DNA of 41,648 bases, from IMG/VR virus record IMGVR_UViG_2541047962_000003; one strand, written 5' to 3'. The position numbers and the translations under genes are program-made. The DNA comes from a virus. Its lineage: Duplodnaviria > Heunggongvirae > Uroviricota > Caudoviricetes. How positions within the stretch are numbered: position 1 is the first letter of the stretch; each line of letters opens with the position of its first letter. A model generated the notes under the pieces. It saw only the letters and a program-made list of their open reading frames with translations, was not told the origin of the DNA and searched no databases. This document shows, piece by piece, positions 568 to 39,582 of this stretch.

Positions 568-1413
568 GTGAATAAAAATCCCTGGGATATTCCAGCATGG
601 CACGCTCTGGGCCGAGAAGCATCTTTAGTAACACAGCTCATTGGTTCTGGGGCAACAGCCATAGGTAAAGCCAATTATGCAGACAAAATAGGTGAATATT
701 ACACAGCATTTTTTGGGCTTTCTGTAGGTTTTGAGAGACTTGCTAAACTAATACTTGTTGCACACTATGCCATTGAACACAAAGGAAAAATGCCTGACGA
801 GAATATTGTAAGAAAATTTGGACACAAGCTCATTGAATTAACCAACGAGGTTGATAGTATTTCTAAAAAAATGCAACTATCTCTGAGATATTCACGTCCT
901 ACACATAAAATTACCTACAAAATACTTGAATGTTTAGATTCCTTTGCTGATGCCCGACGGGGACGTTACGCAAATTTCTCCTCATTAAGCAGCCCCAATT
1001 TAACCAATAATGAACCTATTAATAAATGGTGGGGAGAAGTAGCCGAGAGTATCCTTGAAAAACATTATTATTATACAGTTGAACAAAGACGTGTTGAAGA
1101 AAATGCTAGGTTTATCAATGCCACTCTTTCACCGTATACAACGGTCATGTATATGAATGAAAGTACCAACATTATGCAAGACCTTATATCAGCCTCCATC
1201 CGTACTGGACAAAATACCATTGTTCAAAAGTGGGGAAGATTCTATTCTCTTAGCATCGCTCGTTGGCTTGCCACAGTATTAGCAGAACTGTCTGATATAG
1301 CTTCTCATAAATATGGAATAATTAGTTTTTATGGCCTTAGTGAACATTGTTGCAGTTATATAGTTGAAGATAGTTTTTTAAAAAACAGAAAAATATGGCC
1401 ACTTCGCCAATAG
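568..1413 (+). CDS. Hypothetical protein, 281 aa, AT-rich orphan gene; candidate accessory or defence gene
   Basis: Long ORF with GTG start preceded by AAAGGAAAA. Visibly AT-rich compared with flanking phage DNA. No confidently recognised domain. Confidence 0.6.
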   Translation: MNKNPWDIPAWHALGREASLVTQLIGSGATAIGKANYADKIGEYYTAFFGLSVGFERLAKLILVAHYAIEHKGKMPDENIVRKFGHKLIELTNEVDSISKKMQLSLRYSRPTHKITYKILECLDSFADARRGRYANFSSLSSPNLTNNEPINKWWGEVAESILEKHYYYTVEQRRVEENARFINATLSPYTTVMYMNESTNIMQDLISASIRTGQNTIVQKWGRFYSLSIARWLATVLAELSDIASHKYGIISFYGLSEHCCSYIVEDSFLKNRKIWPLRQ

Positions 1414-1732
1414 TTAACGAGAAAATCTGCATAAGGGGGAGAAATCCCCCACCTGTAATAACATAACTACTAAAATTAACACCTTGTTCGCGCAACTCCT
1501 CCACCAGCACGACAAGATGCCGCACACTGCGCCCCAGTCTGTCCAGCTTCCAGACAACCAGCGTATCTCCTTCTGATAGCGTTCTGAGCAGTTTTTTCAA
1601 TCCCGGTCTGGCTGATTTTGTTCCGCTGATTTTATCTTCAAAAATCAGTTCACATCCTGCGCACTCCAGCGCGTTACGCTGCAATTCTGTATTCTGGTCA
1701 TTTGTTGATACGCGGACATAGCCAATAAGCAT
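1337..1732 (-). pseudogene. Gin/Pin/Hin-family serine DNA invertase, truncated; only the N-terminal ~87 residues (about 1472-1732) are invertase-like
   Basis: N-terminus MLIGYVRVSTNDQNT...LVVWKLDRLGRS matches the invertase catalytic domain. After ...REQGVNF the frame continues into unrelated sequence, and the helix-turn-helix C-terminal domain is missing. Confidence 0.8.
1435..1450. terminator. Hairpin GGGGGA-gaaa-TCCCCC, possible bidirectional terminator between the orphan gene and the invertase remnant
   Basis: Perfect 6-bp stem with tetraloop 22 bp after the stop at 1413. No strong T-tract on the + strand, so weak. Confidence 0.3.
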
Positions 1733-1787
1733 GATGGATCCCCTGAATAAAAACCGGGGATGATGCCAGTTAGCCGTAATCTCTGCA

Positions 1788-1814
1788 TTTTCTTAAACGT
1801 TGGTTTGGGAGAAG
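1788..1814. repeat. Invertase crossover site (gix/pix/hix-like), invertase-proximal
   Basis: TTTTCTTAAACGTTGGTTTGGGAGAAG. Its reverse complement shares the 15-mer CTTCTCCCAAACCAA with the site at 3645-3670, in inverted orientation. Resembles the hix/gix AAACC-NN-GGTTT core. Confidence 0.65.
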
Positions 1815-2134
1815 CGGCAAAACGAAATGTGGGAACAGGGGAAAATCAGATACCTGATATGTCATCATATGCATCAGGTTCAGGCTGGCGAAAAATGCCA
1901 GATGGTTCAATTGAACAGTGGGGACGAATTAGTTTTCCTGGTGAACACGGGCCTGTATCCGCCAATGTTTCATTCCCAATTCCATTTACACAGACACCGG
2001 GCATTGTAATTGTGTGCGATGGTGGTTTCGGGGGCGGGAATATGTGGGGGGCGACCAACTGGAGCACTACCGGCTTCATAGCTCACTGCAATTATGGTCT
2101 TGAAGGTGGTGCGTTTTTCGCTAAGGGCTGGTAA
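1800..2134 (+). CDS. Alternative tail-fibre C-terminal (receptor-binding) cassette, promoterless, silent in this orientation
   Basis: The frame encodes ...[10 protein letters not shown]... across the crossover site, paralleling ...ENLGLGEG... in the expressed fibre. Followed directly by a tail-fibre assembly gene. Confidence 0.6.
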
Positions 2135-2577
2135 TGATGAAATATCTGTACGTAAACAACCTGGCATATCCTTACGAACTTCAGTCTCTTTATGTTGAAA
2201 AAGGTGAATGGCCTGAAGAAAAAGGTGTTGATATAGACGAAGTAATTTTCAGGGAATATTTCTATGATACACCACCAGAAGGAAAATACAGATGTGTCGG
2301 AGAGGATGGACTGCCTGCATGGGCAGATATTCCTCCACCAACACGTGAAGAACAAATTGCATCAGCCGAAACTAAAAAGCAGCAATTGATTAACCAGGCC
2401 AACGAATACATCAACAGTAAACAATGGCCAGGTAAAGCATCAATTGGTCGTCTGAAAGGTGAGGAACTGGCGCAATATAATTTGTGGCTGGATTATCTGG
2501 ACGCACTGGAACTGGTCGATACTTCCGGTGCGCCAGATATTGAATGGCCTACGCCTCCGGCAGTTCAGGCCAGATGA
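2134..2577 (+). CDS. Tail-fibre assembly protein (alternative cassette)
   Basis: 147 aa. Position and C-terminal similarity to the 2549-3151 product (both end in ...D-[IV]-[IE]-WP-[TE]-[PL]P...). Tfa-like. Confidence 0.7.
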   Translation: MMKYLYVNNLAYPYELQSLYVEKGEWPEEKGVDIDEVIFREYFYDTPPEGKYRCVGEDGLPAWADIPPPTREEQIASAETKKQQLINQANEYINSKQWPGKASIGRLKGEELAQYNLWLDYLDALELVDTSGAPDIEWPTPPAVQAR

Positions 2578-3151
2578 CGTCCGGCGCTGTGCTGGTATCT
2601 GTTGCCGTCACCGCGTCAATGTAATCCAGCACAGCGTTAAGTCGGGTGTTTTCTGGCTGCGTCAGCTTCCGCCCAGCCTGTAATTTCAGTTGAATCAGAC
2701 TGATGGAAGCCATTGCAGCATCAATCAGCGACTGGCGCTGTGCTTCTGCCGCTTCTACTGCGGCGCTATGCTGTGCCTCGGTATCGGTCACCCATTTCTC
2801 ACCATCCCATTTATCGTATGGCGTTAATGGGGCGATAGTGGTTGTATTTTCGGGGTAATCACCCGGAGTTGTGATTTCTTTGGCGTCTCCCGTTTCGGTG
2901 TTATAGACGATTTCTCCGCGATGGTCTGGCACATATTCCCATGAGTTTAAATCCGCAGAGCGGCAGATGGCATAACCAGCTTTATATGTTCCTGGTGCAT
3001 CTAAACAGGAACATGCCGGAATACCGACACCAACAGCAAGATATTCAGTTGATGTGGAAATATATTCTCGTGTTTCACCATTATAATTATAGACAGTAAT
3101 ATCCCCCGCCTTCGTGGCAATAAACTCGCTATTTAATACGGCATTATCCAT
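2549..3151 (-). CDS. Tail-fibre assembly protein (expressed cassette)
   Basis: 200 aa, immediately downstream of the tail-fibre gene. Tfa-like. Confidence 0.75.
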   Translation of the reverse strand: MDNAVLNSEFIATKAGDITVYNYNGETREYISTSTEYLAVGVGIPACSCLDAPGTYKAGYAICRSADLNSWEYVPDHRGEIVYNTETGDAKEITTPGDYPENTTTIAPLTPYDKWDGEKWVTDTEAQHSAAVEAAEAQRQSLIDAAMASISLIQLKLQAGRKLTQPENTRLNAVLDYIDAVTATDTSTAPDVIWPELPEA

Positions 3152-4014
3152 TATGCAGCCCTCACGATGTAATTAAATGAAAGGTTACGAGGGCGCATTG
3201 ATATCCATGCCCCGGTAAAATTATCCTCCGCTGTCCTTTGAGTACCCGTTATGGAGTTATCTGCTGATGCAGGAACATAATCGCTATTATTTCCTGCTTT
3301 AGGATTAGCTGGGTTTCCAACAGTTATAACAGAATCAGCAGTAGCAAAAGCGATACCTACTTTGACATTAGTATTCAGATCGTAACCGTAATAATCCTGC
3401 AAAGCTGTACGAATAAATGTTGCAGCCTGACCACTTAGCAATGAACGCCCCGTATCAATCCCTCTAGAATCATCCCAGCCACGAATAAACTCACCACGTA
3501 AATCAGGCAATTTATTTGTCGGGTAAGCCTTTGCCAGTTCCGGGTATTCTTCAGCAGAAAAAGCTGCTCCGTTGCATTTCAGCCAGCCTGTTGGAGGTGT
3601 CTCTGAAGGCCACGGAACAGGTGCACCAACAGGTAATGCTGAACCTTCTCCCAAACCAAGGTTTTCGAGAGCCGTTTTCACCGTGCCATCCGATTTGATA
3701 TCACCAAACGGATTCTTGCGGCTCAGGTATTCAACAGCAAACCCCGATCCCAGCAATTCAACAAAACCGGGCAGATCACCATTATCAAGCACATCCCGTT
3801 GCGTTTTATCACTTACAAACTGGGCCAGAGCTGCAGCAATAAAGCTGGCCTGCCGAATAACCTTATTGACTTGCGCACTGGAGGCTTTCCCTGCTGTAAA
3901 TCCAGATAAAAGCGCAGGCAACGCTTCCCATTCCTCCTGCGACATAACATTGGCATTTTTACCCGTTGCGAATGCTTTAAAGTCATTTTTTGCCATCAGA
4001 GTAATACTCCCCAT
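3151..4014 (-). CDS. Tail-fibre protein (constant N-terminal part joined to a variable C-terminal part at the crossover site)
   Basis: 287 aa. The crossover site lies in-frame within ...[11 protein letters not shown].... e14 StfP-like arrangement. Confidence 0.75.
3645..3670. repeat. Invertase crossover site, distal, inside the tail-fibre gene
   Basis: CTTCTCCCAAACCAAGGTTTTCGAGA. Inverted copy of the 1788-1814 site. Confidence 0.65.
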
Positions 4015-4676
4015 GCCCCTAGATCAAAACCACTGATAAATTCGTTATCCATATCAAAACCAAAAAATTTTGAACCTTCCGATGGGGTTTCCACCGAAGG
4101 TGTTTCAATGCCACCCGCCCACACCCCGGCGGCTTTTACTGTGAGATATCCCTGTTTAATTGCAGCAATTAACTCACGCGATACATCTGAAATATCAGTA
4201 TCAGGAAAGACCCAGACCGATATCGTCATGTCCTGGTTATCGACAATCTGCATTCGCAGTCCGGATCCTGCTGTTGCAGCGTCAAGGATTGCCGGAAGCG
4301 AATCATTCCGTCCGTCCCAGTTATTAATCGCAATCTTCGCTTTAAGAATGACACGATAAGTTTCATCGCTGAGATACATGTATCCTGAATCAGGATCATA
4401 TGGCCCCTGCCATACCCCCTGATCATATCCAAGCCCGTCGGTATCCCAGCGGAAATAGACACCTGAGATAGGCTGGCTGACAACACGGCTACGTCCGATC
4501 CACAATCCAAGAATGTCAAGTTGCACACCAACCGCAGAGTCAATATCAAATACAGTAATCAGCCCTCTGGTGGCAGCCGCAACATCAATAAGCGGCCGGG
4601 TCATCAGATCAACATGTGCAAGAAATTTAGGTTTGGTGGCGTGGTAGTTCGTGATTAGTTCGGTGTATTTGCTCAT
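3996..4676 (-). CDS. Tail protein (YmfQ/DUF2612-like)
   Basis: 226 aa, between the baseplate J gene and the tail fibre as in e14 (jayE-ymfQ-stfP). Confidence 0.55.
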
Positions 4677-7034: not shown

Positions 7035-7607
7035 TTATTTAGGTTTCTTCCTACCATAAACAAACACTGTAGTTAATCCTACGAGATCTAAAGTAGCAAG
7101 AGTACCTGCGAACCAAGTGTTACCGCGATTAGCAAAAAACGCAGCCATTATAAGCACTACCATTGCAATGCAAAATCCCATCCATTGCCCACGTTTGTCG
7201 CGTGAAACCGCACCAAGTAATGCATCACTTTGCGTCTTATGCCTATGCTCTTGCTCTTTTTCGGTTAGCCTGAAAATTCTCTCAGCGCCGCCGGGTAATA
7301 TTTGATTATATTGTAAGAGCATAGCAGGAGGTGGGAGTGGTCCCTGAAAAGACTCCTGCTGAAACATGGCAATAACCTTCGGGTTCTTAGAAACTCTCTC
7401 AAGAAGTTCAGGTGTTAACTTCGATTTTAGCTCAGGATCAAGGTTGGCAACTGCAGACAGCTTTTCCACTACTTCCTGAGACTCATCATATTCCGAGGAA
7501 TCAATATCTTCGTCGATACCATCCGAATCAGGAACGGCTTTTTGCGACGCTTTGTTTTCCTGATGCTTTTTGAGAACGGCCGCCTGCTTGCGGGGTTTTG
7601 AACTCAT
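7035..7607 (-). CDS. Membrane-anchored protein, DUF2335-like (C-terminal transmembrane helices); start codon uncertain
   Basis: 190 aa. Motif ...LPGGAERIFRLTEKEQEHRH... followed by two hydrophobic helices. Overlaps the upstream small ORF by 80 bp; an internal GTG with an AGGAAG site is an alternative start. Confidence 0.55.
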   Translation of the reverse strand: MSSKPRKQAAVLKKHQENKASQKAVPDSDGIDEDIDSSEYDESQEVVEKLSAVANLDPELKSKLTPELLERVSKNPKVIAMFQQESFQGPLPPPAMLLQYNQILPGGAERIFRLTEKEQEHRHKTQSDALLGAVSRDKRGQWMGFCIAMVVLIMAAFFANRGNTWFAGTLATLDLVGLTTVFVYGRKKPK

Positions 7608-33210: not shown

Positions 33211-33852
33211 ATGTCACAGCCCGTATTAACTAATCACCTTAAAACTCAAATCATCAATAACGCACTTGAGAAAGCGGGTATCCCCAAACGTAAATCAGCA
33301 CTACGAGCTGCTCGTGTTGAATGGGCCGAACGTGTTCGGCTTGCAGCTATCGGGGGCGTAGAGAAAGAAGCTGAAATATTAAAAAATATAAAAAAGATTG
33401 AATCCATGGTAACAAAAATCCCTGATTCATTAAAAACCAATAGTTCTTTAATTCGAAAAGATTGCTGCATATATCTCAATCTGGCTGGAGCCAGAGCAAA
33501 CATTTATTTCAATGGCAACTACAGAGGTTATGAATCAGGAGCCCCCGAGCATATTAATAAAATAGCACCTGCAGAATTTACTCTACTTGGCGAAGATCCT
33601 CTGGTAACGGAGTTTTATAGCTTTGATGCTCTCTACACACAAATTAAAAGTGATGAAACCGAAATCATACAGAACGTCAGCGCGGCTCTAAATAAAGTTC
33701 GGACAGTAAAACGATTACTGGATGTATGGCCCGAAGCTAAAGAACTGCTTCCAACAGACGCACCGCCAGTCCCTTTAGCACCAGCAGTACATCGAGAGAC
33801 ATTAAATGAAATGATAGGCCTTCCTACCAATACAGTGTCTGATACTCAATAA
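33211..33852 (+). CDS. Hypothetical protein, AT-rich
   Basis: ATG at 33211 preceded by GAGGGAAAG. No domain recognised. Confidence 0.5.
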   Translation: MSQPVLTNHLKTQIINNALEKAGIPKRKSALRAARVEWAERVRLAAIGGVEKEAEILKNIKKIESMVTKIPDSLKTNSSLIRKDCCIYLNLAGARANIYFNGNYRGYESGAPEHINKIAPAEFTLLGEDPLVTEFYSFDALYTQIKSDETEIIQNVSAALNKVRTVKRLLDVWPEAKELLPTDAPPVPLAPAVHRETLNEMIGLPTNTVSDTQ

Positions 33853-34535
33853 CAAGGGGGATGCTTATTATATGATTTTGAACGTTTTACAATCTCGTTA
33901 AGAGGCGTGAAATCAAAATCTCTGAATAACACATCAGGATACTTCGCTCTTGCTTTATCCAGCAAACCAGTTAAAGTATTTTTTGTGTTACCCAACATTG
34001 TATTAACCGCCACTACATGTCTAATTTCTGGAGGTTTATCTATACCACCAGAAATTGCTTCATTAAGAACCGACGCCAGTGGGGTTTGTCCCTTACTTGT
34101 TGAATCCCACAGCGTCATTAACAGACGAGCTGCGTCTATAAATAGCTTTTTGTCAGCATTTGGCTTGACAGTAATACCAGAACTACCTGAGCCAGAACCG
34201 GAACGTTCTATTGCTGCACTGGTATCCGATTTCATAGGATTAAATAACGGCAGCTCTGTACAACCGATACGCCGAATGAAATCCTTTGCAACATCTCTAC
34301 CACAGAAAAAAGCCCCTGTACAATTTTCATCAGAGCGTTTTTTAAATGAAAAACAATAGTACTGATCGGTTAACGGATAACCGGAATAACTGGTTTTAGT
34401 TTGTCCAGTAATAAGTTTCAGGTGTGCAACAGGCTGAATAATAAAATCCCGAACTATCGCATCTTTTATGTCGTTACCACGGTGACAATAATATTCAGGT
34501 AATCCATTAGGCTGTCTCTTATTACCCACAGTCAT
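33846..34535 (-). CDS. Hypothetical protein (229 aa) with Cys/His-rich N-terminal region and Ser/Gly linker; antisense to the early operon
   Basis: AT-rich. Convergent with the preceding gene (7-bp overlap). Divergent AT-rich promoter region shared with the polymerase gene. Confidence 0.5.
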   Translation of the reverse strand: MTVGNKRQPNGLPEYYCHRGNDIKDAIVRDFIIQPVAHLKLITGQTKTSYSGYPLTDQYYCFSFKKRSDENCTGAFFCGRDVAKDFIRRIGCTELPLFNPMKSDTSAAIERSGSGSGSSGITVKPNADKKLFIDAARLLMTLWDSTSKGQTPLASVLNEAISGGIDKPPEIRHVVAVNTMLGNTKNTLTGLLDKARAKYPDVLFRDFDFTPLNEIVKRSKSYNKHPPCY

Positions 34536-36881: not shown

Positions 36882-37177
36882 TCGTTTACGTTGCCGGGCC
36901 GATGAGCGGTTACGAGCAATTTAACCGCCCGGCTTTTCATTCCGCAGCAAAGAGGCTAACGGACAAGGGATATGTTGTGCTTAACCCCGCAACTTTACCC
37001 GATGGTTTGACACAGGCTCAGTACATGGACATCTGCCTCGCCATGCTTCGCTGTGCCGATACGATTTATATGCTCAAAGAGTGGGAGTACTCTGCCGGCG
37101 CACGTGCAGAAAACGCGTTGGCAGAGAAACTGGAATTGAATGTGCTTTTTGAAGAGTGGGATTCAGATGGCCTATGA
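36878..37177 (+). CDS. DUF4406-like (nucleoside 2-deoxyribosyltransferase-like) protein
   Basis: ...VYVAGPMSGYEQFNRPAFHSAAKRL...VLNPA... matches the family signature as recalled. Confidence 0.55.
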   Translation: MIVYVAGPMSGYEQFNRPAFHSAAKRLTDKGYVVLNPATLPDGLTQAQYMDICLAMLRCADTIYMLKEWEYSAGARAENALAEKLELNVLFEEWDSDGL

Positions 37178-37436
37178 ACGTGAAAGCCTTATCGAAAAGC
37201 ACCTCGTCGCTGAAGTGAAAAAAGCTGGCGGAGTGGCCTTTAAGTTTGTATCTCCCGGTCACCGCTCGGTACCGGATCGCATTGTCCTGCTACCCGGTGG
37301 TCGTATCGTTTTCGTTGAATGTAAATCCCCCGGCAAACCACCACGGCCTGACCAGTTGCGCGAGCATGAACGTCTGCGAAAGCTGGGCTTTACCGTGGTA
37401 GTACTGGATAGCAAAAATTTAGAGGGGATATTGTGA
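37167..37436 (+). CDS. VRR-NUC domain nuclease
   Basis: ...GRIVFVECKSPGKPPRPDQ... motif. ATG overlaps the upstream stop. Confidence 0.65.
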   Translation: MAYERESLIEKHLVAEVKKAGGVAFKFVSPGHRSVPDRIVLLPGGRIVFVECKSPGKPPRPDQLREHERLRKLGFTVVVLDSKNLEGIL

Positions 37437-37441
37437 GACAA

Positions 37442-38167
37442 TCATTCTGAGCGATTTTTCTTGAGCTTAGAAGCTTTTAAAAAACATACTTTTAGTTGTT
37501 GTGTTTCTTTTATGCTTACAGGAATTAATTTCCCCTCAATTCCTTCGACACTCATAAATTCAGAGCTATTTTTTTTACAGTTCCCCAAGACAAATTTTCC
37601 GTTATAGCTTTCGATAATATAAGCATCATATTTTTTAGAATAAAAAAGAGGCTCATCTGATAAGTATGCCCATGCCCACCCAAGGACTGAAGGAAGCATT
37701 GCTATGGATATAAAAAACATAACCCCATGAGTTTTGTTTTTTATTCTAAATTCATTCCTAATAAAAACAGATACTGCCCTGACACTGATAGGGCTAATAA
37801 ATCCCAATAGTATTGCTTGGGTAGCCACATCCCTTATGGATTTTTCATAAAGGTATGAGCTACCGCCATATAAATACATTGTCCAGTATGAAAGCAAAGA
37901 GGCCAAAATGAAGAAAAATAAATACACCCCCCATGGAATATTCTTCTCTTCAGTATCAATATGCAGCAAAGCGACTAAGGTGCACAAAAGTCCTAATGCA
38001 ATAACAGAAAACTTAACTATTTCCTCAATCCCAATAGAAATAAAACTTACAGGGAATCCATAAAATGAGCTGTATCCTTTGTAAAAAGAAAAAGCCATAA
38101 AATAAAGGGCGGCCAAGAGAACCGTTGTAATTGATAAATCTTTTACATTCATGATGTTCAAGAGCAC
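37442..38167 (-). CDS. Polytopic membrane protein (241 aa), very AT-rich, antisense to the early operon
   Basis: Four to six hydrophobic helices. Inserted between the VRR-NUC and SNF2 genes on the opposite strand. Confidence 0.55.
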   Translation of the reverse strand: MLLNIMNVKDLSITTVLLAALYFMAFSFYKGYSSFYGFPVSFISIGIEEIVKFSVIALGLLCTLVALLHIDTEEKNIPWGVYLFFFILASLLSYWTMYLYGGSSYLYEKSIRDVATQAILLGFISPISVRAVSVFIRNEFRIKNKTHGVMFFISIAMLPSVLGWAWAYLSDEPLFYSKKYDAYIIESYNGKFVLGNCKKNSSEFMSVEGIEGKLIPVSIKETQQLKVCFLKASKLKKNRSE

Positions 38168-38190
38168 CTTTCTAATCAGGGATTTTCTTC

Positions 38191-39582
38191 ATGATAACTT
38201 TTAAACCACGTCCCTACCAAGATCTCATCATCAATCATCAAATCGAGACCCTGCGCGGCAACATCTGGGCAGGGATGGGGATGGGTAAAACCGTGGCAAC
38301 GCTCACTACGCTGGAAGATCTCTTTATGGCAGGGGCAGAAACACGCCCCGCACTGGTCCTCGCGCCGCTACGCGTTGCAGCAAGCACATGGCCGGATGAA
38401 GCGCTGAAATGGAAGCATCTGCGCAATATCGAGGTACAGCCGATTGTTGGTAATGTCAAAGCGCGCTCTACGGCGCTGGCGAACAGCAACGCAAGCGTGT
38501 TCACCATCAACTACGATAACCTTGTCTGGCTGGTTGAAGAATTGGGAGAACGATGGCCGTTCGGTACTGTCATTCCGGATGAAAGCACCCGGCTAAAATC
38601 CTTCCGGCTGCGAGGTGGTGGTAAGCGCGCGGCGGCGCTGGGCAAAGTGGCGCACAAGTATGTCCGGCGCTGGATAAATCTCACCGGTACGCCAGCACCG
38701 AACGGCCTGGTAGATTTGTGGGGACAATCGTGGTTTGTGGACCTGGGGCAACGTCTCGGGCGCACTTACGGCGCGTTTACCTCACGCTGGTTCAAATCGA
38801 TACAGTTTCCGGGGCAGAGCTGGACCAAACTGGAGCCTTTTGCTCACTCACAGGGTGAAATACAGCGAGCGTTAGCCGATGTGACCCTCTCGCTGGATGC
38901 GACCGACTGGTTCGATATCAAAGACCCCATCCATAACGTAATCCGCGTGGATATGCCGCCGAAGGCCCGTCAGCAGTATCGTGAAATGGAAAAGGAAATG
39001 TTCCTCGAGCTGAATGGCGAAGGCATAGAAGCACCGAACGCCGCGGCAAAGACACTGAAGTGTCTGCAAATCGCCAGCGGCGCAGTATACACAGATGACA
39101 CCGGAAGTTGGTCAGAACTGCATGACACCAAACTACAGGCGCTGGACAGCATACTGACCGAAGCAGCTGGCGCACCTGTGCTGGTTGCTTATCACTGGAA
39201 ACACGATCTTGAACGCTTGCTTAAAGCATTTCCTCGCGGTCGTCACCTCGACCAGGATCCACAGACACTACGTGACTGGAATTCCGGAAAGATTCCTGTT
39301 CTCTTTGCACACCCAGCCAGCGCGGGCCACGGTCTGAACATGCAGGACGGCGGAAACATACTGGTATTTTTCTCACATTGGTGGGACCTGGAGCAGTATC
39401 AGCAAATTATTGAACGTATCGGCCCAACCAGACAGATACAGGCCGGACACAATCGTCCGGTATTTATTCACCACATTATTGCTGCCGACACTATGGACGA
39501 AATGGTGATGGAGCGGCGCAACTCAAAACGAACAGTGCAGGACATCCTGCTCGATGCCATGAAAAAGAGAGGTATAGCATGA
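38191..39582 (+). CDS. SNF2-family helicase/ATPase
   Basis: ...GMGMGKT... Walker A and ...DESTRLK... motif II. Confidence 0.8.
   Translation: MITFKPRPYQDLIINHQIETLRGNIWAGMGMGKTVATLTTLEDLFMAGAETRPALVLAPLRVAASTWPDEALKWKHLRNIEVQPIVGNVKARSTALANSNASVFTINYDNLVWLVEELGERWPFGTVIPDESTRLKSFRLRGGGKRAAALGKVAHKYVRRWINLTGTPAPNGLVDLWGQSWFVDLGQRLGRTYGAFTSRWFKSIQFPGQSWTKLEPFAHSQGEIQRALADVTLSLDATDWFDIKDPIHNVIRVDMPPKARQQYREMEKEMFLELNGEGIEAPNAAAKTLKCLQIASGAVYTDDTGSWSELHDTKLQALDSILTEAAGAPVLVAYHWKHDLERLLKAFPRGRHLDQDPQTLRDWNSGKIPVLFAHPASAGHGLNMQDGGNILVFFSHWWDLEQYQQIIERIGPTRQIQAGHNRPVFIHHIIAADTMDEMVMERRNSKRTVQDILLDAMKKRGIA

Follow-up and report, generated by a model that had tools for sequence, protein, structure and literature searches.

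A hyperdivergent membrane protein family in an exchangeable cargo slot of Enterobacterales prophages, with a possible role in the exclusion of incoming phages

The virus record IMGVR_UViG_2541047962_000003 of IMG/VR, a stretch of 41,648 nucleotides (nt) that we refer to in full as the window, contains on its minus strand an AT-rich gene for a protein of 236 amino acids (AA) with five predicted membrane helices, located between a VRR-NUC nuclease gene and a SNF2 helicase gene. We found that this membrane-protein gene is an accessory gene ("moron") in an exchangeable cassette of an intact temperate Escherichia coli prophage, that the slot between VRR-NUC and SNF2 is a defence hotspot shared with BstA and the candidate defence protein PDC-S42, and that the protein belongs to a new family, which has no curated family, characterised homologue, or structural relative. 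For its role we tentatively favour, as possible rather than probable, an accessory protein expressed in the lysogen that would exclude incoming phages at the inner membrane without cell death; both this function and the membrane topology are inferred. Superinfection exclusion was preferred because the slot is shared with BstA and PDC-S42, because family members are retained in decayed prophages, because the alleles are hyperdivergent, and because the family occurs on several prophage backbones. The features on which these statements depend are as follows.

37442-38152, minus strand: membrane-protein gene (stop codon 37442-37444), 236 AA, identical to RefSeq WP_021580418.1; allele of the window type in an uncharacterised prophage family of Enterobacterales
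37437-38190, no strand assigned: exchangeable cargo cassette, delimited by blastn breakpoints against eight slot variants
37167-37436, plus strand: VRR-NUC / PD-(D/E)XK nuclease gene, the conserved left flank (RefSeq annotation; 90-93% protein identity across slot variants)
38191-39582, plus strand: SNF2-family helicase gene, the conserved right flank (Pfam SNF2-rel_dom, E 1.5e-11; 94-97% protein identity across slot variants)

An exchangeable slot and its divergent occupants

In blastn comparisons with the eight slot variants, similarity to the sister prophages broke within the last codons of VRR-NUC (37414-37437) and returned 0-25 nt into SNF2 (38191-38215). The membrane-protein gene lies inside the early operon on the opposite strand, convergent with VRR-NUC (5-nt gap) and divergent from SNF2 (38-nt gap); this position, antisense to the early operon, had been given in an earlier note made from the sequence alone and was borne out by the list of open reading frames (ORFs) and the RefSeq annotation. 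The VRR-NUC and SNF2 flanks were present in 159 of 5,426 complete E. coli genomes and the membrane-protein gene in only 22 of those 159, so that it is present in some collinear relatives and absent from others. Its composition is likewise unlike that of the surrounding phage genes. The GC content of 34.0% (31% at third codon positions, GC3) is the lowest in the window, compared to 50-54% in the flanking VRR-NUC, SNF2, and PolA genes, and the earlier description of the gene as markedly AT-rich was accurate. Only 0.06% of the 711-nt segments across the 41.6-kb sequence were this low in GC, all of them overlapping the gene, and the same contrast was seen in nine contexts, with every family member examined at 31-38% GC against 46-56% in its flanks. 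No bounding repeats or mobile-element ends were found at the interval, and a scan of the interval with Rfam returned no family.

A comparison of the cargo carried at this site, one of the checks proposed in the earlier note, revealed that the slot is exchangeable and holds BstA or PDC-S42 in sister prophages. In sister E. coli prophages the occupant was a full-length BstA in antisense orientation (PADLOC, E 1.4e-115), an experimentally characterised prophage abortive-infection protein (PMC8585504). The occupant in E. coli EC0585 (locus L017, 864-2537) was an antisense set of three genes encoding 292, 82, and 176 AA, the first matching the PADLOC candidate PDC-S42 (E 6e-40) and the second and third having no annotation. 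Further occupants were DUF6338 with an 86-AA ORF, both antisense, an Arc/Arc/Rha module, and a Dcm methylase with a 106-AA antisense ORF, and the phages vB_EcoM-606R2, -611R5, and -689R2 contained two small sense ORFs in the slot and no family member. All slot cargos were AT-rich (33-45% GC).

Two other occupants of the slot proved to be distant, full-length members of the same family: a 265-AA protein in E. coli MINF_2E (locus L033, 495-1292; E 6e-44 with the family profile), found in 17 complete genomes, and a 243-AA protein in E. coli O8:H8 16F5M1D1 (locus L034, 465-1196; E 4e-38), found in 6 complete genomes and carrying the family motif and both cysteines described below. At least 45 of the 159 slot-bearing E. 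coli prophages carried some family member. The three E. coli types were only 21-31% identical to each other, in a setting where SNF2 was 94-97% and VRR-NUC 90-93% identical. Family members also occupied the same slot in the same orientation in an enteric prophage at proA (49% identity, flanks 92-94%), in IMG/VR contigs (51%, flanks 91-94%), in Providencia alcalifaciens (28%, flanks 72-78%), and in Serratia marcescens. From these identities, either the gene outpaces its neighbours by far in evolution or alleles already divergent are exchanged between conserved flanks, and each of the two is a signature of specificity determinants in conflict. The allele pattern matches that of P22 SieA, for which three types less than 30% identical are found at one locus (PMC10883804).

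Every family member found, in this slot or elsewhere, lay in a prophage or the remnant of one. The member in a P2-like Yersinia massiliensis prophage lies between gpS and gpV, at the orf30 position, which is one of three recognised horizontal-transfer regions in P2-like phages (PMC3091744). In lambdoid Serratia prophages the gene follows DnaB, in Pantoea it is antisense and adjoins Dam, a DNA methylase, and an integrase, in another context it lies antisense close to an integrase, with an exonuclease gene on one side and a DUF2303 gene on the other, and in an Izhakiella island it lies near a YafO toxin-antitoxin pair. No recurring partner gene was found beside family members in ten contexts, which suggests that the family protein acts alone. 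In a Serratia remnant, SNF2 (313 AA) and PolA (480 AA) were fragmented and the gene for a single-stranded DNA (ssDNA)-binding protein was split in two, and the family member and a TIR gene were intact; in an Enterobacter prophage remnant the family member was likewise intact amid decay.

These distributions bear on the possibility that the gene serves the lytic cycle, as a membrane anchor for PolA/SNF2 replication or a regulator of lysis timing that is semi-core and fast-evolving. Such a role would fit the repeated presence of family members in precisely this slot when PolA/SNF2-type prophages from Escherichia, Serratia, Providencia, and others are compared, but it is hard to square with the at least 114 of 159 E. 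coli relatives, and the three sequenced phages of the lineage, that have no family member there, with a gene that is antisense to the operon it would serve, with occurrence of the family in the structural (P2-like) and nin-type regions of unrelated prophages, and with survival of the gene beyond that of the replication genes in decayed prophages. We therefore consider a lytic-cycle function very improbable. The earlier note had named a conserved phage replication membrane anchor as an identity that would speak against its own suggestion, and the absence of the gene from most relatives and from the three sequenced phages indicates that it is not one.

Over the stretches compared, the window was 100% identical to E. 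coli FDAARGOS_144 and related strains. The prophage is approximately 41 kb in length, complete-looking, and inserted between yfhH and yfhL of E. coli. It carries a LexA/CI-type repressor on the plus strand and its integrase on the minus strand, together with a divergent minus-strand operon consisting of helix-turn-helix (HTH), VapE, Q, lysis cassette, terminase, and head and contractile-tail genes. The plus-strand early operon encodes DUF2800, DUF2815 (Enc34-type ssDNA-binding), Nmad5, PolA, ANR, DUF4406, VRR-NUC, SNF2, and an AlpA-like protein.

Other apparent cargo was observed in this prophage group. A second AT-rich antisense ORF (33846-34535, minus strand; 229 AA, 39% GC, 28% GC3), encoding a soluble protein without a Pfam or PADLOC match, lies between Nmad5 and PolA, and relatives hold other cargo around PolA, including TIR-domain proteins between PolA and ANR; given this variety, the region looks like a second cargo hotspot in the early operon. 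An AT-rich 281-AA ORF (568-1413, plus strand; 37% GC, 27% GC3) that lies past the tail-fibre genes at the far left of the prophage, identical to the "hypothetical protein" WP_001039127.1 and also without a Pfam or PADLOC match, is probably another moron. Tail-fibre and tail-fibre-assembly genes on both strands at approximately 1480-4015 adjoin a truncated recombinase pseudogene and resemble a decayed Gin/Cin-type invertible host-range segment. A DUF2335 gene between the baseplate and spike genes (7035-7607, minus strand) coincides with a local dip in GC to 42-44% and may be cargo of the tail operon. In the Providencia alcalifaciens prophage (locus L030, 4093-5493), a 466-AA NTPase of the AAA_16/nSTAND type lies between SNF2 and the AlpA-like gene and marks a further cargo site; some STAND-class NTPases are anti-phage proteins.

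The gene, the predicted protein, and the family

The six-frame list contained the gene as an ORF of 241 AA with a GTG start (37442-38167, minus strand), and this was the protein described in the earlier note. The ORF and its strand stand, and the length is corrected by the homologues and by RefSeq: the true start is almost certainly the ATG at 38152, 15 nt inside the longer ORF, giving 236 AA. This start was chosen because all homologues begin with MN[VLI]KDL (13 of 13 close homologues in the alignment), because the RefSeq entry, labelled "hypothetical protein", uses the 711-nt form, and because a 48%-identical homologue (locus L005) has an in-frame TAA 9-7 nt upstream of its ATG. The remainder of the longer ORF can be listed separately.

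38153-38167, minus strand: five extra codons of the 241-AA ORF with its GTG start, probably 5' untranslated and not coding

Relative to a 77%-identical Enterobacter homologue, the ratio of nonsynonymous to synonymous substitution rates (dN/dS) was approximately 0.085 (dN 0.146; dS 1.7, close to saturation). Relatives of full length (228-265 AA) reached down to approximately 21-30% identity, the 90%-identity cluster of the protein contained 310 member sequences, and no plus-strand ORF in the interval was longer than 51 AA. Judged by these comparisons, the gene is real and under purifying selection. The contrary view, that the ORF arose by chance in an AT-rich spacer or is a remnant in decay, could draw on the weak spacing of the ribosome-binding site and on the lack of a promoter that stands out statistically. 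Conservation over the full length down to 21% identity, with invariant motifs and cysteines, together with the low dN/dS, the 310 clustered sequences, and a confidently predicted fold, effectively refutes that view, to which we assign a negligible probability.

Kyte-Doolittle analysis showed five hydrophobic segments at residues 6-26, 44-64, 74-94, 110-131, and 143-164, approximately. An AlphaFold2 model built from the alignment of 23 family sequences (predicted local distance difference test (pLDDT) 88.8, predicted template modelling score (pTM) 0.86) contained five long helices (8-31, 42-68, 74-95, 106-132, and 140-164) coinciding with the five peaks, and the protein can be described as polytopic with multiple hydrophobic helices, as had been proposed. 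A short helix (99-104) was also modelled, and the C-terminal part consisted of five β-strands (170-211) followed by a helix (214-235); when this domain was folded alone the same elements were obtained (pLDDT 86). In terms of transmembrane helices (TM) and the count of lysine plus arginine (K+R), the protein can be divided into the following segments.

38024-38131, minus strand: residues 8-43, TM1 and the TM1-TM2 loop with the best-conserved motif; loop predicted periplasmic (mean K+R 0.3, net charge -1.4)
37760-38023, minus strand: residues 44-131, TM2-TM4 with short loops, the variable core (majority-residue fraction 0.25-0.33)
37661-37759, minus strand: residues 132-164, the basic TM4-TM5 loop (RNEFRIKNKTH, predicted cytoplasmic; mean K+R 2.5 in the 11-residue loop) and TM5
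37445-37660, minus strand: residues 165-236, a C-terminal small β-barrel of five strands and a basic helix, predicted to be periplasmic and disulfide-stapled
37577-37579, minus strand: codon of the invariant Cys192
37484-37486, minus strand: codon of the invariant Cys223

Across the 23 sequences, Y17, C192, and C223 were invariant, and G26, G32, P34, F37, I38, G158, A162, and F224 were nearly so. Conservation was highest in TM1 and the TM1-TM2 loop (0.52-0.60), where the motif G-Y-x-x-F-[YF]-G-[YF]-P-x-x-F-I-x-[IV]-[DG] spans the end of the helix and the loop, was intermediate in TM5 and the C-terminal β-domain (approximately 0.40), and was lowest in TM2-TM4 and their loops (0.24-0.33). The outer end of TM5 carries a conserved G-W-x-x-A, and the C-terminal domain is marked by Y-[LI]-[LI]-x-S-[YF]-x-G-x-x-V-L-G-x-C followed further on by K-x-C-F. 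No Asp, Glu, His, Lys, Arg, or Ser was invariant in the family alignment, which argues against an enzyme or a classical transporter.

The family-mean K+R counts were 2.0 for the N-terminus, 0.3 for loop 1-2, 1.2 for loop 2-3, 1.4 for loop 3-4, and 2.5 for loop 4-5, and counts restricted to TM-proximal residues favoured an N-in/C-out arrangement in 20 of 23 sequences, with three ties and none in reverse. Cys192 and Cys223 are the only conserved cysteines, and the confinement of this pair to the C-terminal domain fits a predicted periplasmic disulfide. We therefore lean, with moderate confidence, towards a cytoplasmic N-terminus and a C-terminus outside, a topology that the residue counts do not make secure. 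In this arrangement there would be three cytoplasmic segments of only 7-11 residues each.

Searches for relatives pointed to a small and rare family, with 18 homologue clusters by word-indexed search and 25 by exhaustive phmmer search of 1.84 billion representatives, and the named members came only from Enterobacterales (Escherichia, Salmonella, Enterobacter, Pantoea, Izhakiella, the Frankliniella symbiont BFo2, Serratia, Yersinia, and Providencia). Neither Pfam nor NCBIfam gave a match for the protein or its 23 relatives, and PADLOC (PADLOC-DB v2) run on the 23 relatives gave only two stray single-member matches. PHROGs contained nothing at E <= 0.1 for the window protein. The earlier statement that no family is recognised thus holds for Pfam, NCBIfam, and PADLOC, and for PHROGs at that threshold. 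However, phrog_35408 (PHROGs v4), which has no functional annotation, was matched by 13 of the 23 members (best E 1.3e-8) end to end, over profile positions of approximately 8-217 of 228, and is probably of the same superfamily as the window protein, which itself has no match to it at E <= 0.01. No PHROG of known function was matched by the protein or its relatives. A sequence-profile search of the PDB gave only noise, Foldseek against BFVD found no structural relative, and matches were absent when three family members were searched by tblastn against 50,697 phage records, when the window protein was searched by tblastn against 72,556 plasmids, and when species-representative genomes were scanned with the close-family alignment. 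A literature search for WP_021580418.1 found no paper.

Several specific candidates were rejected. The protein showed no sequence or structural similarity to any characterised membrane-protein family that would make it a transporter, channel, or enzyme of known fold; homology to a known transporter, which the earlier note had counted as contrary to its suggestion, was searched for in Pfam, NCBIfam, and PDB profiles and not found. DUF6338, the alternative membrane cargo of the slot, gave only a 7.6-bit match in the variable hydrophobic core, and no Pfam DUF6338 was detected in the 23 members. The 246-AA ORF16 of phage R18C (locus L035, 881-1621), an AT-rich gene described at the P2 S|V site (PMC6823313), encodes a soluble, cysteine-rich protein and is unrelated, although the Yersinia P2-like prophage carries its family member at this very site.

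Possible exclusion of incoming phages and competing functions

If the protein does exclude phages, the gene would be transcribed in the lysogen from its own candidate promoter, in the opposite sense to the repressed early operon. Inserted into the inner membrane, the product would have a cytoplasmic N-terminus and an external C-terminus. The TM1-TM2 loop, conserved and aromatic, and the C-terminal domain with its disulfide staple would thereby come to lie on the periplasmic side, where the tail tip, ejection proteins, or tape-measure protein of an incoming phage might be hindered in opening a path through the inner membrane. Alternatively, the target of the block could be an inner-membrane host factor used by the incoming phage. 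The range of phages excluded would depend on the variable TM2-TM4 core and surfaces, and upon induction, transcription of the early operon antisense through the gene would damp its expression. Because the predicted cytoplasmic segments are so short and catalytic residues are absent, steric or binding interference at the periplasmic face appears to be the most economical mode of action.

38191-38220, minus strand: candidate sigma-70 promoter (TTGGTA, 18 nt, TATCAT), 39 nt upstream of the gene; from a consensus scan, weak evidence

The candidate promoter overlaps the first ten codons of SNF2. The complement of the SNF2 ATG falls within its -10 element, and the conservation of its -35 element is due solely to the coding of SNF2 by the same nucleotides. 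Upstream of the family member in the P2-like context there is a TTGCTA-16-TACAAT site. A scan found no terminator downstream of the membrane-protein gene.

A number of observations weigh against phage exclusion. Promoter-like sites upstream of the gene were no more frequent than in shuffled sequence in the four contexts compared, and the Shine-Dalgarno-like AAGGTG is unusually far, at 12 nt, from the ATG. The slot also carries cargo unrelated to defence (Arc/Arc/Rha, Dcm methylase), so that position alone is no proof, and PADLOC assigned the protein to none of its families. The C-terminal domain is basic (9.7 K+R, especially in the last helix), and a whole-loop count under the positive-inside rule favours a cytoplasmic C-terminus. 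The family spans myovirus-type, P2-like, and lambdoid prophages, so it is not tied to the exclusion of one phage type as SieA is, and alignment of the family profile with SieA by hhalign gave a probability of 0.2% over 13 aligned columns, which we do not regard as homology.

The suggestion made in the earlier note, that membrane proteins of this configuration are often superinfection-exclusion or abortive-infection effectors, gains circumstantial support from a cargo slot shared with BstA or PDC-S42, from the patchy presence of the gene, from its survival in decayed prophages, and from its hyperdivergent alleles; the choice between the two is inferential. As an abortive-infection effector, the protein would lie silent in the inner membrane until perturbed by a phage, when pore opening or oligomerisation would collapse the membrane potential and kill the cell before new phages can form. 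This would be feasible for a small polytopic membrane protein encoded by one gene and devoid of catalytic residues, BstA in the same slot is an abortive-infection protein, and AT-richness with possibly tightly controlled expression would suit a toxic effector. However, the protein has no sensor domain, cytoplasmic segments of the predicted length could hardly read phage cues in the cytoplasm, conservation falls on a loop and on a domain folded outside the membrane rather than on pore-lining helices, and no partner gene recurred beside it across the ten contexts. We consider this alternative quite unlikely.

A role in lysogenic conversion or host fitness that has nothing to do with phage is also unlikely, though less so. 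The protein could in that case provide orphan immunity to a membrane-acting bacteriocin or a contact-dependent toxin, or it could be a non-enzymatic envelope modulator, acting for instance on O-antigen or lipopolysaccharide (LPS) assembly or on a transporter, with a changed cell surface or a changed tolerance of stress as the result. Its occurrence as cargo, its AT-richness, and its persistence in decayed prophages would suit any moron of benefit to the host, hyperdivergent alleles are typical of toxin-immunity specificity as well, the periplasm is where the conserved face is predicted to lie, and some cargo of the slot is not defensive. These arguments are countered by the absence of a toxin or bacteriocin gene beside the family member in any context examined, by the lack of similarity in Pfam and NCBIfam to immunity, Gtr, Oac, or Wzy-type families, by the lack of conserved catalytic residues, and by the restriction of the family to prophages and their remnants, with no plasmid match for the window protein by tblastn. 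The probability left over by phage exclusion and the named alternatives belongs to something else.

Extended to the family as a whole, the exclusion hypothesis becomes more doubtful: its members might be periplasm-facing, single-protein blockers of phage entry, each with five helices and a disulfide-stapled small-barrel ectodomain, whose hyperdivergent and interchangeable specificity alleles, located in prophage cargo slots across Enterobacterales, each exclude different phages by way of their injection machinery or of inner-membrane factors that they need. Prophage exclusion proteins acting at the inner membrane are few and mechanistically obscure, and a second, structurally distinct family, if exclusion is its function, would be useful for studying the passage of phage DNA through the inner membrane and the influence of prophages on phage host range in E. 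coli, Salmonella, Serratia, Yersinia, and Providencia. Attractive features for such work are the folded domain on the predicted periplasmic side, the clear allelic types (three in E. coli alone), and the defined slot shared with BstA and PDC-S42. The interval from the VRR-NUC stop to the SNF2 start in PolA/SNF2-type prophages is moreover a compact and easily mined defence hotspot. Without a phage phenotype, the membrane-protein gene would remain an ordinary uncharacterised moron.

Comparison with known systems

The best functional analogy for the membrane protein is SieA of P22, an inner-membrane blocker of DNA injection (PMC10883804). Both are encoded by prophages as a single gene, both are small polytopic inner-membrane proteins (a prediction in the case of the window protein) without enzymatic motifs, and both occur as several sequence types at one conserved locus, those of SieA being less than 30% identical. 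The SieA gene is also opposite in strand to its neighbours and has its own promoter. SieA was reportedly pinned to the ejection-protein conduit only in 2024. The differences are considerable. SieA is 162-164 AA in length with 3-4 TM helices and no folded extramembrane domain, and its motif FxRYPxEAxxFNK, which is absent from the family alignments, is C-terminal and predicted to be cytoplasmic, whereas the membrane protein described here has 236 AA, five predicted TM helices, a C-terminal barrel of approximately 70 residues with two invariant cysteines, and, near the N-terminus, a conserved loop for which a periplasmic location is predicted. SieA is tied to P22-like phages, and the present family occurs in at least three prophage backbones.

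With BstA the membrane-protein gene has in common the identical VRR-NUC|SNF2 slot, the antisense orientation, and the status of single-gene prophage cargo, but BstA is a soluble, DNA-associated protein of 310 AA and is unrelated (hidden Markov model E 2.3; no PADLOC BstA match). T4 Imm, HK97 gp15, and lambda RexB, which belong to the small injection blockers and Abi membrane partners encoded by phages, are membrane proteins of a resident phage whose site of action against incoming phage is at or in the inner membrane; they are much smaller, at approximately 80-150 AA with 2-4 TM helices, and RexB needs RexA. The membrane protein is set apart from these three by general description and not by sequence comparison. 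Its kind is familiar, that of a prophage moron encoding a small inner-membrane protein in a defence hotspot, and its family and architecture are new.

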